In this document: one piece after another, positions 1,746 to 4,943 of the stretch
Numbering within the stretch: position 1 is the first letter of the stretch
Layout of the letters: every line of letters begins with the position of its first letter
Assembly: GCA_964194675.1 (NCBI GenBank)
Contig: CAXMND010000064.1
Coordinates: 33,809 to 97,808, forward strand
Length of the DNA: 64,000 nt
Source: an uncultured Coxiellaceae bacterium
GTDB taxonomy: Bacteria > Myxococcota_A > Polyangia > Polyangiales > Houyiibacteriaceae
Direction of reading: 5' to 3'
The notes under the pieces: model-generated
What the model saw: the letters and a program-made list of their open reading frames with translations, nothing else
Database searches by the model: none
Told to the model about the DNA's origin: nothing
Made by a program: the position numbers and the translations under genes

Positions 1746-3233
1746 TTGCAGGAGCGGTTCCCGGCGCCGGAATTCCACTCCCCTCGGGGGAGCATCTTTC
1801 CGCCACCCGCGGGACGTCGCGTCTATTGCAATCGCAACTTGAGGCTCGACCAAATCAGCGTGGTCGGCTTCGACATGGACTATACGCTCGCGATCTATCG
1901 CCAAGCGGAAATCGACCGGCTCAGCATCGAAGCAACCCTCGTCAAGCTCGTCGAGCGCGGCTACCCCGAGGAGCTCCTATCGATGAAATACCGGACGGAC
2001 TTTCCCGTTCGAGGCCTGCTGATCGATCGGAAGCTCGGCAATGTGCTCAAGATGGACCGTTACCGTTACGTGAAGACCGCGTACCACGGGTTTCGCAAGC
2101 TCACGCGCGAAGAGCGTCGCCGAGCCTACCACACCCGACGCCTTCGCCCGGGCACGGAGCGCTACCACTGGGTCGACACGCTGTACGCGCTTTCGGAAGT
2201 CGCGGTCTACGCTGCAGTGGTCGATCACTTCGAGAACCGCGGGCGCACCGTCGACTACGGCAAGCTCTTCGCCGATGTCCGAGAGTGTGCGGATATCTCG
2301 CACCAGGACGGATCGATCCTCGACGTGGTTCTCGCGGACCTCCCCAAGTACGTGGAGCCCGATCCTGACATCGGCGTCCTGTTCCACAAGCTCCGCAGTG
2401 CCGGCAAGCGCCTTTTCGTCCTCACCAACTCAGGACCCGAATACACCAGCGCCATGATGTCGCATCTCCTCGATGACGCGCTTGACGAGTACCCCAGCTG
2501 GAGAAACTATTTCGACTACGTCATGACGGCCGCGAAGAAGCCGAGTTTTTTTACGGGCAACGCTCCCTTCGTCGACTTCGAAACCGAGGAAGAGACCACG
2601 AAGCCCAAACGCGGGCGAGTCTACTTGGGGGGCAACATCGCCGCTCTTCGACGCACCCTCGCCGTGCCAGGAGACGAGGTGCTCTACGTCGGTGACCACA
2701 TCTACGGCGACGTTCTTCGCGCCAAGAAGGAATCCGCGTGGCGCACCGCAATGATCATTCAAGAGATGGATGACGAGCTGCGGACTTTGCGCGAGCACGC
2801 GGTCAGCTTCGAACGCCACGATGCTCTCGAGGAGATGCGTATAGCGGTGCAGGACGAGCTCAGAGAGAATCAAGCGCGCTTGAAGGAAGTCGAGCGAGCG
2901 CTCAACAGCGACGCCCCGAACTCTCCCAAGCCGGCGCTCGAGGCCCAGCGATCTCGCCACCGTCGCTCGATCGACCGCCTTCGGGCCCAACTCCGCGATC
3001 TCGACGCGGAGAGCTCCGCCCTGAACGACACCCTCGACGAGGCTTTCCACCCGTTCTGGGGTTCCAGCTTCAAGGCGGGCAACGAGATCTCGAGCTTCGG
3101 CAACCAAGTCGAACAGTACGCGTGCCTCTATACGTCACGCGCCACGAACTTCACGCAATACTCGCCAATGCACTACTTCGAGAGCCCCAGGCACCGGATG
3201 GCGCATGAAGCGGGCACGAGCCCCGGCGCGTAG
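1746..3233 (+). CDS. HAD-IG family 5'-nucleotidase (cytosolic cN-II-like)
   Basis: RVYCNRNLRLDQISVVGFDMDYTLAIY carries HAD motif I (DxDxT). Also present: ...LFVLTNSGPEYT... and ...LYVGDHIYGDVLRAKK... The overall layout matches the 5'-nucleotidase (PF05761-type) family. Only a TTG start is available, 10 nt after the rpmA stop. Confidence 0.8.
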   Translation: MQERFPAPEFHSPRGSIFPPPAGRRVYCNRNLRLDQISVVGFDMDYTLAIYRQAEIDRLSIEATLVKLVERGYPEELLSMKYRTDFPVRGLLIDRKLGNVLKMDRYRYVKTAYHGFRKLTREERRRAYHTRRLRPGTERYHWVDTLYALSEVAVYAAVVDHFENRGRTVDYGKLFADVRECADISHQDGSILDVVLADLPKYVEPDPDIGVLFHKLRSAGKRLFVLTNSGPEYTSAMMSHLLDDALDEYPSWRNYFDYVMTAAKKPSFFTGNAPFVDFETEEETTKPKRGRVYLGGNIAALRRTLAVPGDEVLYVGDHIYGDVLRAKKESAWRTAMIIQEMDDELRTLREHAVSFERHDALEEMRIAVQDELRENQARLKEVERALNSDAPNSPKPALEAQRSRHRRSIDRLRAQLRDLDAESSALNDTLDEAFHPFWGSSFKAGNEISSFGNQVEQYACLYTSRATNFTQYSPMHYFESPRHRMAHEAGTSPGA

Positions 3234-3245
3234 CAGCGGCGGGGA

Positions 3246-3330
3246 CAGACAGCGTCAGCGCCAGTGTCAGCGCCAGCGCCAGTGCCAGCGCCCCCAGTGT
3301 CAGTGCCAGCGCCCGTGTCAGCGTCCATGT
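3246..3330. repeat. Period-6 tandem array, CAGYGY type (array 1)
   Basis: CAGA CAGCGT CAGCGC CAGTGT CAGCGC CAGCGC CAGTGC CAGCGC (CCC) CAGTGT CAGTGC CAGCGC CCGTGT CAGCGT CCATGT. Starts 13 nt after the 5'-nucleotidase stop and is intergenic. Confidence 0.9.
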
Positions 3331-3348
3331 GATCATTCTTGGGTCGCC

Positions 3349-3423
3349 GTGATTTCCTTTCTGAGCGGCTCGGCCCCCCCTCCCGTTTGTGAGGGGACCC
3401 GATCCACTCAGAAAGGAAATCAC
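3349..3423 (+). promoter_or_regulatory. 75-nt rod-like leader hairpin sequestering the SD of the first 4HB gene
   Basis: A perfect 17-bp outer stem pairs GTGATTTCCTTTCTGAG (3349-3365) with CTCAGAAAGGAAATCAC (3407-3423). An inner 7-bp helix with one mismatch pairs GGCTCGG with CCGATCC. The apical stem is CCCCTC(8 nt)GAGGGG (3377-3396). The 3' arm contains the AAAGGAAAT Shine-Dalgarno region and ends 2 nt before the ATG at 3426. Confidence 0.75.
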
Positions 3424-3425
3424 TC

Positions 3426-3752
3426 ATGGGACTCATCGTTCAACAGAAAGCACTTCAGGCAGCGAGGGGGCTTCAGCCTCTTCTGCCCATCATCAGGAAG
3501 CGCGACAAGGACCTCTTCGACCAGGTTCGGAGGGCTATGAATAGCGTCGTTCTCAATATTGCCGAGGCTGATGGAAATGACTCGGGGACGGCGAGAGCTC
3601 GCTTTGCGACTGCGTGTGGCTCAGCCAAGGAAGTCCGTGTGGGGCTCCAGCTTGCCGCAGCCTACGGCTACATCGGCCAAACCCGATTGGCGGAAGTGGA
3701 CATCGCGCTCGATGAGGTCTGCGCGATGTCCTGGAGGCTGTCGGGCCGTTAG
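3426..3752 (+). CDS. Four-helix-bundle protein (23S rRNA intervening-sequence protein / Avd-like family)
   Basis: 108 aa. The core DQVRRAMNSVVLNIAEADGNDSGTARARFATACGSAKEVRVGLQLA matches the pattern I know for the PF05635/TIGR02436-type 4HB family. The SD is inside the upstream hairpin. Confidence 0.8.
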   Translation: MGLIVQQKALQAARGLQPLLPIIRKRDKDLFDQVRRAMNSVVLNIAEADGNDSGTARARFATACGSAKEVRVGLQLAAAYGYIGQTRLAEVDIALDEVCAMSWRLSGR

Positions 3753-4081
3753 CCCCTCCGAGCCAAGCACCACGTAATGGCACACACCTCGTCGAGTTTC
3801 TCGTCGAGGTGGGTCGCCGTCTGTGCCTCGATGTACCCCCAGTCGCTTGCCACATCGAGTGCCGCCCGAACTTCCTTCGCGGACCCACACGCGGTGGCAA
3901 AGCGCGCCCGCGCATTCCCCGCATCACTCCCCCGAGCTTCCGCGATATTGAGGACCACACTCTGCGCAGCCCTCTTGAGCTGGTCTGCAAGCACCCGATC
4001 TCGTCCCTGCACCACCCGGAGGAGCGGAGCGAGCTCCCGCACAACCTTTCGGGCTCGGATGTAAACGTTAGTGGATTGCAT
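3749..4081 (-). CDS. Four-helix-bundle protein, paralog of the adjacent gene
   Basis: 110 aa. The core DQLKRAAQSVVLNIAEARGSDAGNARARFATACGSAKEVRAALDVA is nearly identical to its neighbour. AAGGAG lies 6 nt before the ATG. Its stop codon overlaps the stop of the + strand gene (TTAG at 3749-3752). Confidence 0.8.
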   Translation of the reverse strand: MQSTNVYIRARKVVRELAPLLRVVQGRDRVLADQLKRAAQSVVLNIAEARGSDAGNARARFATACGSAKEVRAALDVASDWGYIEAQTATHLDEKLDEVCAITWCLARRG

Positions 4082-4087
4082 TTTGTA

Positions 4088-4153
4088 CTCCTTGATTTGG
4101 GTTTGGGCCCCGTTGGCCTCACCCCGCTGTGGTCACAAACCCAAATCAAGGAG
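4088..4153 (-). promoter_or_regulatory. 66-nt leader hairpin sequestering the SD of the second 4HB gene
   Basis: A perfect 18-bp stem pairs CTCCTTGATTTGGGTTTG (4088-4105) with CAAACCCAAATCAAGGAG (4136-4153), with a 30-nt loop. On the minus-strand mRNA the 3' arm carries AAGGAG followed by TACAAAATG. Confidence 0.75.
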
Positions 4154-4156
4154 CGC

Positions 4157-4252
4157 CAGCGCCAGCGCCAGCGCCAGCGCCAGCGCCAGTGCCAGCGCCA
4201 GTGCCAGCGCCAGCGCCAGTGCCAGCGCCAGTGCCAGCGCCAGCGCCAGTGC
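4157..4252. repeat. Period-6 tandem array, CAGYGC type, 16 perfect units (array 2)
   Basis: (CAGCGC)x5, then two copies of the 30-nt block CAGTGC CAGCGC CAGTGC CAGCGC CAGCGC (4187-4216 and 4217-4246), then CAGTGC. Verified against the AS- and PA/PV-repeat translations in the ORF track. Confidence 0.95.
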
Positions 4253-4338
4253 CGGGCGCGGGTCCTTCAGGTGTTTTTTTTGTTCCCACGAGCCCGCTCT
4301 TGTCTATACTGCTGTCGCTAACGGAAGAGGAGCGCGAC

Positions 4339-4629
4339 ATGGCCAAAGCAGTAACGAAGAAGCGAACCACCAAGAAGGCCGCGAAGAAGCGAGCCGCGCC
4401 GAAGAAGGCCGCCAAGAAACGCGCGAGTAGCGCCGCTAAGCGCGCGAGAGCTGAAGTGGACGCATTGAGGAAGAGGGCCACCAAAGAGCTCGCCGCTCTC
4501 AGGAAGAAGCTCGACAAGGCAAGGCGGGACGCAAAGAAAGAAACGGCTGCCCTCAAAAAGAAGCTCACCGCCGCAACAAAGACGCTTCAAAAGAAAACAA
4601 AGAAAAAGCGACCCGCCAAGAAGAAGTAG
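4339..4629 (+). CDS. Lys/Ala-rich histone H1-like nucleoid-associated protein
   Basis: MAKAVTKKRTTKKAAKKRAAPKKAAKKRASS...KKTKKKRPAKKK. 96 aa, with KKAA-type basic repeats flanking a coiled-coil-like core (AEVDALRKRATKELAALRKKLDKARRDAKKE). GGAAGAGGAG lies 6-15 nt before the ATG. The upstream part of track ORF 4129..4629 is just the hexamer array read as PAPAPV. Confidence 0.6.
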   Translation: MAKAVTKKRTTKKAAKKRAAPKKAAKKRASSAAKRARAEVDALRKRATKELAALRKKLDKARRDAKKETAALKKKLTAATKTLQKKTKKKRPAKKK

Positions 4630-4719
4630 ACGCGCGGTAACGTCCAGCGACTGCGCCAGCGTGAACTCCAGGGGGGATGCTTGCGAAGCGGCACACAGGT
4701 GCTAAGTCGGGCTCCCCTT

Positions 4720-4792
4720 GGGGCGGTAGCTCAGCTGGGAGAGCACTACACTGGCAGTGTAGGGGTCCGGGGTTCGATCCCCCGTCGCTCCA
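4720..4792 (+). tRNA. tRNA-Ala (anticodon GGC)
   Basis: Hand-folded cloverleaf. The acceptor GGGGCGG/TCGCTCC includes the G3:U70 alanine identity pair. D arm GCTC-AGCTGGGA-GAGC. Anticodon arm CTACA-CTGGCAG-TGTAG, with GGC at 4753-4755. T arm CGGGG-TTCGATC-CCCCG. Discriminator A. CCA is not encoded (the sequence continues CCCC). Confidence 0.93.
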
Positions 4793-4803
4793 CCCCATGA
4801 AAC

Positions 4804-4836
4804 CGACGCTTTGCGTCGTCCGGGGGGCAAACCCCC
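4804..4836 (+). terminator. Two tandem GC hairpins just 3' of the tRNA (possible terminator or processing signal)
   Basis: CGACGC-TTT-GCGTCG (4804-4818) and GGGGGG-CAAA-CCCCC (4822-4836). No U-tract follows. Confidence 0.3.
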
Positions 4837-4840
4837 ACGT

Positions 4841-4943
4841 CCACTGGCACTGGCGCTGACACTGGCGCTGGCACTGACACTGGCATTGGCACTGGCGCTG
4901 GAACTGGCACTGACACTGGCGCTGACGCTGGCGCTGAGCACTG
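4841..4943. repeat. Period-6 tandem array, reverse-complement form RCRCTG, 17 units (array 3)
   Basis: CCACTG GCACTG GCGCTG ACACTG GCGCTG GCACTG ACACTG GCATTG GCACTG GCGCTG GAACTG GCACTG ACACTG GCGCTG ACGCTG GCGCTG AGCACTG. Opposite orientation to arrays 1 and 2. Confidence 0.95.

Follow-up and report, generated by a model that had tools for sequence, protein, structure and literature searches.

The locus described here raises the question of why the ribosome-binding site of a small protein-coding gene should be buried in a perfect hairpin, and of whether this hairpin serves the gene as RNA. The gene (gene 2) lies in a 64,000-nt window, which is the whole stretch of DNA that was analysed, and it faces a paralog (gene 1) with a hairpin leader of its own. 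The features of the locus are as follows.

4153..4136, minus strand: 5' arm of the gene-2 hairpin, CTCCTTGATTTGGGTTTG, with the anti-SD sequence CTCCTT at the 5' end of the arm (direct reading and fold)
4135..4106, minus strand: hairpin loop of 30 nt, TGACCACAGCGGGGTGAGGCCAACGGGGCC (direct reading)
4105..4088, minus strand: 3' arm of the hairpin, CAAACCCAAATCAAGGAG (direct reading)
4093..4088, minus strand: Shine-Dalgarno (SD) sequence AAGGAG of gene 2, inside the 3' arm
4087..4082, minus strand: spacer TACAAA
4081..4079, minus strand: gene-2 start codon ATG
3749..4081, minus strand: gene 2, encoding a 110-aa four-helix-bundle (4HB) protein, PF05635 / TIGR02436
3426..3752, plus strand: gene 1, encoding a 108-aa PF05635 paralog, convergent with gene 2 with a 4-nt overlap
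3349..3423, plus strand: gene-1 hairpin with a total of about 30 bp, of which 17 bp are perfect; its 3' arm contains the SD AAGGAAA
4152..4253, minus strand: hexamer array 2 (CTGGCG/CTGGCA), 17 units, directly abutting the gene-2 hairpin
3250..3323, plus strand: hexamer array 1; arrays 1 and 2 share one absolute orientation

Direct reading of the minus strand showed that the original prediction of an 18-bp perfect stem with a 30-nt loop, followed by TACAAA and ATG, was correct to the base, all 18 of 18 pairs being perfect. In a repeat search the arms at the gene-2 leader were reported as 4088-4110 and 4131-4153, and the loop (4106..4135) was found to contain a conserved apex motif, CCACA...GTGAGG, and a remnant of an upper stem, GGCC...GGCC. 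The folding energy of the leader RNA is -39.9 kcal/mol (z = -3.9), which was not matched by any of 200 shuffled sequences. The accompanying claim that AAGGAG is fully paired with the upstream anti-SD arm was supported both by the sequence and by a probability of 0.999 that the SD of gene 2 is paired to upstream sequence, compared with a mean of 0.50 in 547 other ORFs of the same genome that have a strong SD.

When the entire assembly (3.5 Mb, 238 contigs, 62% G+C) was scanned, 17 perfect inverted repeats of at least 14 bp with a loop of at most 45 nt were found. Only nine repeats per 3.5 Mb had a stem of at least 17 bp, and six of these nine were leaders of 4HB genes; by our own estimate, about 0.002 such 18-bp repeats would be expected by chance. 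The gene-2 hairpin is not a chance product, and as a leader structure it is restricted to these genes. A dispersed palindrome of the REP or MITE type was rejected, as the assembly holds no more than these nine repeats of at least 17 bp, six of them 4HB leaders, and the copies are old and divergent. Elsewhere in the assembly, a second array family, (CGTGCT)n, makes long perfect inverted repeats (C8:10679-10755, C227:57-130, C193:36696-36745, and C231:108-161), and an unrelated 24-bp perfect inverted repeat lies at C237:1666-1728.

Other kinds of leader element were considered for the hairpin. An intrinsic terminator was not found: the stem is followed by TACAAAATG in the sense and GCGCCAGC in the antisense direction, with no U tract, and the terminator scan lists none at the hairpin. 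No curated Rfam family matched the hairpin at or above the gathering threshold, and the sub-threshold matches were to generic miRNA-precursor hairpin models only. An RNA thermometer of the ROSE or fourU type was rejected on account of the perfect stem (18 bp here and 30-35 bp in the paralogs, -40 to -78 kcal/mol). A translational attenuation leader of the ermC/cat type was rejected as well, as there is no conserved upstream start or SD and the reading frames differ between copies; the open frame through the array reads as an LA repeat in C178 and as HW/RW in C30, and it meets a stop in the loop of the window copy. Nor could an in-frame GTG start in the conserved loop sequence GTGAG be upheld, the GTG being in frame in some copies only. 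A promoter and terminator scan of positions 3150-4450 gave a sole promoter, that of the H1-like gene on the plus strand, and none for gene 2, and no sigma-70 or sigma-54 (TGGCAC-N5-TTGC) fits were seen by eye in the array, spacer, or arm. With only 6 nt between the stem and the ATG, and no promoter-like site in the leader, the transcript of gene 2 must either cross the stem or start within it.

The gene-2 protein matched the profiles PF05635 (E = 4e-17) and TIGR02436 (E = 2e-16), and its sole PDB relative by sequence was 2GSC, a weak match. Proteins of this family are abundant across bacteria, were first found in 23S rRNA intervening sequences (IVSs) more than 30 years ago, and are homologous to the DGR accessory protein Avd; to our knowledge, they have no known function outside DGRs. 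The locus has a 5'-nucleotidase gene on one side and an H1-like gene with tRNA-Ala on the other, and arrays 1 and 2 bracket the gene pair in direct, not inverted, orientation relative to each other. An Rfam search gave no rRNA match at 3200-4400. A reverse transcriptase (RVT_1) was sought across the whole assembly with no match, and membership of a DGR, with an Avd accessory gene, was rejected on this ground. PADLOC gave no credible defence-system match, and no transposase, integrase, or reverse transcriptase was associated with the cassette. The gene for RNase III (rnc) is encoded in the same genome.

In the flank of the locus, the Lys/Ala-rich H1-like gene (4339-4629, plus strand) encodes 96 aa, and its KKAAKK-type N-terminal repeats are two to three times longer in relatives. 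The tRNA-Ala (4719-4795, plus strand; region 4630-4841, with the flank AAGGGGAGCCCGACTTAGCACC) is on the same strand as the H1-like gene, and in four genomes of the same genus (L132, L133, L135, and L136) a tRNA-Ala(GGC) is opposite in strand to that gene. This difference indicates that a small segment beside array 3 is inverted in the window.

The gene pair was found at least three more times in the same genome (C49, C30, and C178), with 81-85% DNA identity. The gene-2 hairpins of these paralogs have 30-35 near-perfect pairs (-53 to -78 kcal/mol) and a conserved apex, ACCACAGCGGGTGAGG, and their stems differ by compensation (GAT/ATC versus GGT/ACC, and TTTG/CAAA versus TGTG/CACA). The window copy is without about 8 nt of the upper 5' arm that the paralogs have, and without the spacer of ~25 nt (TTCAGACTTGGYNATCGCTTG) that lies between array and hairpin in most relatives. 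Judged by these comparisons, the gene-2 hairpin of the window is a shortened version, from which the spacer and part of the upper stem have been lost.

Within the genus the 4HB gene is patchy, with 0 to 20 copies per genome and presence in 22 of 41 relatives, whose records are MAGs from uncultured marine myxobacteria, titled Myxococcales, Polyangiales, or Deltaproteobacteria bacterium. Fifty-nine distinct gene-2-type leaders were taken from 129 loci, and 57 of them keep a near-perfect stem of 17-35 bp with AAGGAG in the 3' arm, 5-9 nt before the start. The leader consensus outside this genome is CGCTTG-TCCTTGGNTTGGGTTTGGGCYC-G-CAC-nnnn-GTG-A-GRGCCCAAACCCAANCCAAGGAG-TCGCTG-ATG, and the arms themselves are roughly hexamer-periodic (TTTGGG / CCCAAA). 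The exceptions are L084 (CAWFPD010000010.1, about 1185-1200), in which exactly the palindrome is missing (CGCTTG joined directly to TCGCTCATG) from in front of a full-length ORF that has no SD, and L048 (about 690-700), in which a deletion begins in the 5' arm and extends into the start codon.

Nearly every copy has the same layout: a (CTGGCR)n array, a spacer of ~25 nt, the hairpin, and gene 2, followed by the opposing gene 1, its hairpin, a spacer, and an array. Solo copies of gene 1 or gene 2 exist too. In most genomes of the genus the site of the window locus is empty, with no arrays and no 4HB genes, the 5'-nucleotidase stop being followed after about 100 nt by the H1-like gene and then by tRNA-Ala. 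The empty sites show that the variable unit is the whole segment from array to array, with the hairpin internal to it. The same genome contains about 54 arrays of at least five units (YRNCAG/CTGNYR type) on 38 contigs, against 7 4HB genes or fragments, so most arrays stand without a 4HB gene. Four gene-2-type copies (L098, L101, L103, and L129) gave two tblastn pieces each, in different frames, and are likely to be frameshifted pseudogenes; such split copies, together with many other truncated fragments, point to turnover of the cassette. Close copies of the cassette with 82% and 60% identity to gene 2 were also seen in L082 (JARRLJ010000548.1) and L117 (CAXMPP010000320.1), respectively, on short contigs binned as Gemmatimonadales and Thermodesulfobacteriota MAGs, which mis-binning or transfer could explain.

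The original prediction had proposed covariation analysis of the leaders of related genes, and in both orthologous and paralogous leaders the results showed that pairing is kept via compensatory changes. Pairs were counted on 34 distinct arm pairs of 17 pairs each, with the base of the stem as anchor, a choice that leans toward structure; 99.3% of the lower-stem cells paired, and double-sided changes were present in 11 of the 17 lower-stem pairs (76 cells). None of 500 shuffles reached any of five covariation measures, and sliding the partner by 1-3 columns reduced pairing to 29-60%. With a MAFFT alignment of the leaders, which uses sequence only and mis-registers nine long-stem copies, RNAalifold recovered only 10 pairs, and double changes were present in 6 of these. 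At the outer end of the stem, four pairs, TCCT/AGGA (anti-SD/SD), are invariant while the inner pairs covary, and AAGGAG never varies in the aligned copies, where A78, G79, G80, A81, and G82 are invariant columns; this shows that the SD is selected as an SD.

The protein is conserved as well. Among 1244 pairs from 51 copies of gene 2, the median dN/dS was 0.107 and the median dS 1.19, and the paralogs within the window's genome differ by a dS of about 0.8. These values indicate that the gene-2 protein is under purifying selection, that the gene is used, and that the copies are old; with a dN/dS of about 0.11, the gene is presumably translated. Measured against the same substitution rates, the stem has stayed perfect over a time span that saturates neutral sites.

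It had also been suggested that the hairpins of gene 1 and gene 2 are unrelated and that their common design arose independently. The data contradict this. Genes 1 and 2 share 55% identity, and 58 distinct gene-1-type leaders have a hairpin of ~30 bp that is likewise kept by compensatory change. In both leader families a motif, gaCTTgGycATCG, lies 4-5 nt upstream of the TCCTT anti-SD arm, and its 11-nt pattern (CTTGGYNATCG) was found at one relative position in 26 of 59 gene-2 leaders and 23 of 58 gene-1 leaders. Each leader is, in addition, preceded by a hexamer array. Since motif, arrays, and paralogy are shared, the likeness of design reflects common descent followed by compensatory divergence and was not invented twice; the two leaders are best explained, on comparison of their sequences, as diverged paralogs of one ancestral leader. 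With direct arrays and convergent genes, the (YGCCAG)n of the gene-1 leader RNA would be complementary to the (CUGGCR)n of its gene-2 counterpart, and the two mRNAs could pair over about 70-100 nt of leader.

The form in which the stem is selected, RNA or DNA, was approached through the single-sided changes of the lower stem, where on the sense strand G.U is tolerated in the sense RNA and A.C only on the other strand. The ratio of G.U to A.C was 3:4 in gene 2, 11:5 in gene 1, and 14:9 in total, which is not significant. Of 1439 pair cells, 1370 are Watson-Crick, and indels are mirrored in both arms. Template switching homogenises the arms of inverted repeats without selection, giving perfect arms and symmetric indels (PMC7202029, PMC5941160), and it can introduce double changes in one step (PMC7202029, PMC8604942). 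Because Watson-Crick arms with mirrored indels are the signature of template switching, the covariation proves upkeep of the palindrome and not, by itself, that RNA is the selected form. The same caution concerns covariation work in general: where inverted repeats are long and perfect, template switching can produce both double changes and symmetric indels. The loop motif, consisting of CC-R-CAC, a loop of 4-5 nt, and GTG-A-GG with a conserved R.A mismatch, is never inverted in any copy, and this, together with the invariant SD and its fixed distance from the ATG, favours a strand-specific role at the RNA level.

The main alternative is that the palindrome acts as DNA, its hairpin or cruciform being a recombination, replication, or protein-binding site for gain, loss, or copying of the cassette, and that the SD was included merely as a by-product of position. 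Such a site would suit a cassette that is variably present (0-20 copies per genome in one genus, with an empty site in most relatives), arms that are nearly all Watson-Crick (1370/1439) with symmetric indels and no G.U excess, and the loss of exactly the palindrome in L084, as slipped-strand deletion would give. We nevertheless consider it unlikely, since the inserted segment has its boundaries beyond the arrays, which makes the hairpin internal and not terminal, and since no transposase, integrase, or reverse transcriptase accompanies it. The within-genome copies are moreover old (dS about 0.8), which means that there was no recent copying, and the invariance of the SD and its spacing and the fixed orientation of the loop also speak against a DNA site.

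The probability is lower still that the transcription start lies within the hairpin, either in its loop or in its 3' arm, so that both arms are never present in the mRNA, and that a dimeric regulator, possibly the 4HB protein, binds the repeat as an operator or as a site overlapping the promoter. No -35/-10-like hexamers fit the spacer, arm, or loop of either leader family, operators rarely have perfect arms of 22-35 bp that drift freely by compensatory change, and the covariation points to pairing and not to a fixed recognition sequence, even though an internal start would agree with the failure to find an upstream promoter, with the conserved CTTGGYNATCG just 5' of the arm, and with the conserved apex sequence. 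Least likely of the alternatives, and in our opinion very improbable, is a neutral passenger with no function of its own, kept perfect solely by template-switch (quasipalindrome) correction. This mechanism can homogenise arms and make double changes in one step (PMC7202029, PMC8604942), but long palindromes are prone to deletion, and yet 57 of 59 copies keep the hairpin at dS > 1. It also leaves the constant position relative to SD and ATG, the conserved loop motif and its orientation, and the near absence of such repeats elsewhere in the genome without a reason, and covering an essential SD with a stem of -40 to -78 kcal/mol would come at a heavy cost if no role compensated for it.

The reading that we prefer, at a probability of about 0.55, is that the hairpin is an RNA translational lock in the 5' leader of the PF05635 cassette. 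It would be a cis-acting part of the leader of a cassette that comes and goes and encodes a PF05635 (23S-rRNA-IVS-protein / Avd-like) protein. Once both arms had been transcribed, the anti-SD arm would pair with AAGGAG, and we infer that the hairpin would then act as RNA to block initiation, leaving the primary transcript untranslatable. Such a lock must open in the cell, given the strong purifying selection on the protein and an SD that never varies. We put forward, tentatively and with clearly less confidence than the lock itself, that an RNase III step opens it. RNase III would cut the long stem (double cut), the 5' arm would come away, and AAGGAG would lie free at the new 5' end of a shortened leader. 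The enzyme is the natural candidate because the perfect duplexes are typically 22-35 bp, other stems of the family are proven RNase III substrates, and rnc is present in the genome. The usual minimum for RNase III substrates is about two helical turns, and the 18 bp of the window copy are near or below that length. Cleavage need not activate translation and could be destructive, as argued for Coxiella (PMC4990558). True IVSs, and IVS-like cassettes in other Myxococcota, have a long stem around the ORF, and on the translational-lock reading the gene-2 hairpin may be the local counterpart of that stem on the 5' side.

The proposed logic, in which a leader stem hides the SD and cleavage frees it, is that of RNase III-activated mRNAs. 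In the phage lambda N leader and in E. coli adhE, translation is switched on by RNase III cleavage of a leader stem that occludes the SD. Those stems are imperfect and belong to one gene each, whereas the window-type stem has 18-35 bp with perfect pairing and accompanies a multi-copy cassette, its cleavage being a proposal. Type I toxin mRNAs (hok, tisB) are translationally inert primary transcripts that need processing (PMC11295053). They resemble the window in the sequestration of the SD in the primary transcript and, as proposed here, in the expression of a small protein only after RNA processing; they differ in that the window has no antisense RNA gene or toxin-like hydrophobic peptide, its product being a soluble four-helix bundle. 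The ermC/cat attenuation leaders and the ROSE and fourU thermometers also have the SD in the 3' arm of a leader hairpin. Unlike the former, the window has no conserved leader peptide ORF in its 5' arm, and unlike the latter, window-type stems, at -40 to -78 kcal/mol and with no mismatches, are too stable to melt with temperature.

Comparison with the family at large revealed two further arrangements of stem and ORF. In other Myxococcota families, an upstream tandem array of period 6-8 was present within 300 nt at 19 of 26 PF05635 loci, compared with 2 of 40 control windows. At 12 or more distant loci (L157, L158, L159, L160, L161, L163, L164, L165, L167, L170, L174, and L182; about 300 nt either side of the ORF), the downstream array is the reverse complement of the upstream one (e.g. 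GTCAGAG / CTCTGAC), the unit differing per locus, and the computed duplex energies of arrays pairing around the ORF were -89 to -171 kcal/mol. One of them, L167 (G043:C208), scores 2454 bits as Rfam LSU and is a genuine 23S rRNA gene that contains the PF05635 ORF; its IVS has (CAAGGNN)n and (NNCCTTG)n as arms, and the final 5' unit, CAAGGAG, doubles as the SD of the ORF. A comparable arrangement is described for the Coxiella IVS, in which a 28-bp stem is cut by RNase III, heptamer repeats precede the start, and a putative SD lies within the cut stem (PMC4990558); there, the SD is lost through the RNase III cut, and the protein is apparently not produced (PMC4990558). A local 5' anti-SD hairpin is not a family-wide trait, as the mean probability that the SD is paired upstream was 0.48 in 16 distant Myxococcota PF05635 genes, equal to the background of 0.50. 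Judging from these comparisons, the SD-containing stem of the family seems to have moved, in a change specific to this lineage, from enclosing the ORF to preceding it as the present hairpin.

The window feature thus shares with the 23S rRNA IVSs that carry an S23p ORF (Coxiella burnetii, Leptospira, and L167): (i) the PF05635 family, (ii) a long near-perfect stem tied to the ORF, (iii) an SD inside the stem (AAGGAG in the last 5'-arm heptamer of L167, AGAAGA in Coxiella), and (iv) short tandem repeats beside the start; RNase III is the established nuclease for IVS stems. It differs in being intergenic and outside rRNA, and not in helix 25/45 as the insertion criterion for an IVS has it. Both of its arms are upstream of the ATG and the ORF is outside the loop, whereas IVS repeats pair around the ORF; its flanking hexamer arrays are direct, and there are two convergent paralogs, each with its own hairpin. 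The array-armed PF05635 cassettes outside rRNA (among L157-L182) resemble it in gene family, arrays of period 6 to period 8, patchiness, and intergenic site. Their own arrays make the stem around the ORF, whereas in the window, with its direct arrays, the anti-SD belongs to a separate local hairpin.

The comparison links three layouts, the rRNA IVS, the array-armed cassette, and the 5' hairpin, into one series. A broader possibility, which as a whole we regard as improbable, is that all PF05635 cassettes have their SD within an RNase III-type stem, which encloses the ORF in rRNA IVSs and in array-armed cassettes and precedes it in this genus, and that this stem is a processing-gated switch, a 4HB pentamer reading the apex CC-R-CAC...GTG-A-GG and feeding back on its own synthesis. 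If true, this would give a first functional handle on the very large Avd-related orphan family. That the long stem of the family is placed right over the ribosome-binding site, while the protein is still selected, makes a testable prediction: expression would need the stem to be opened or cut.
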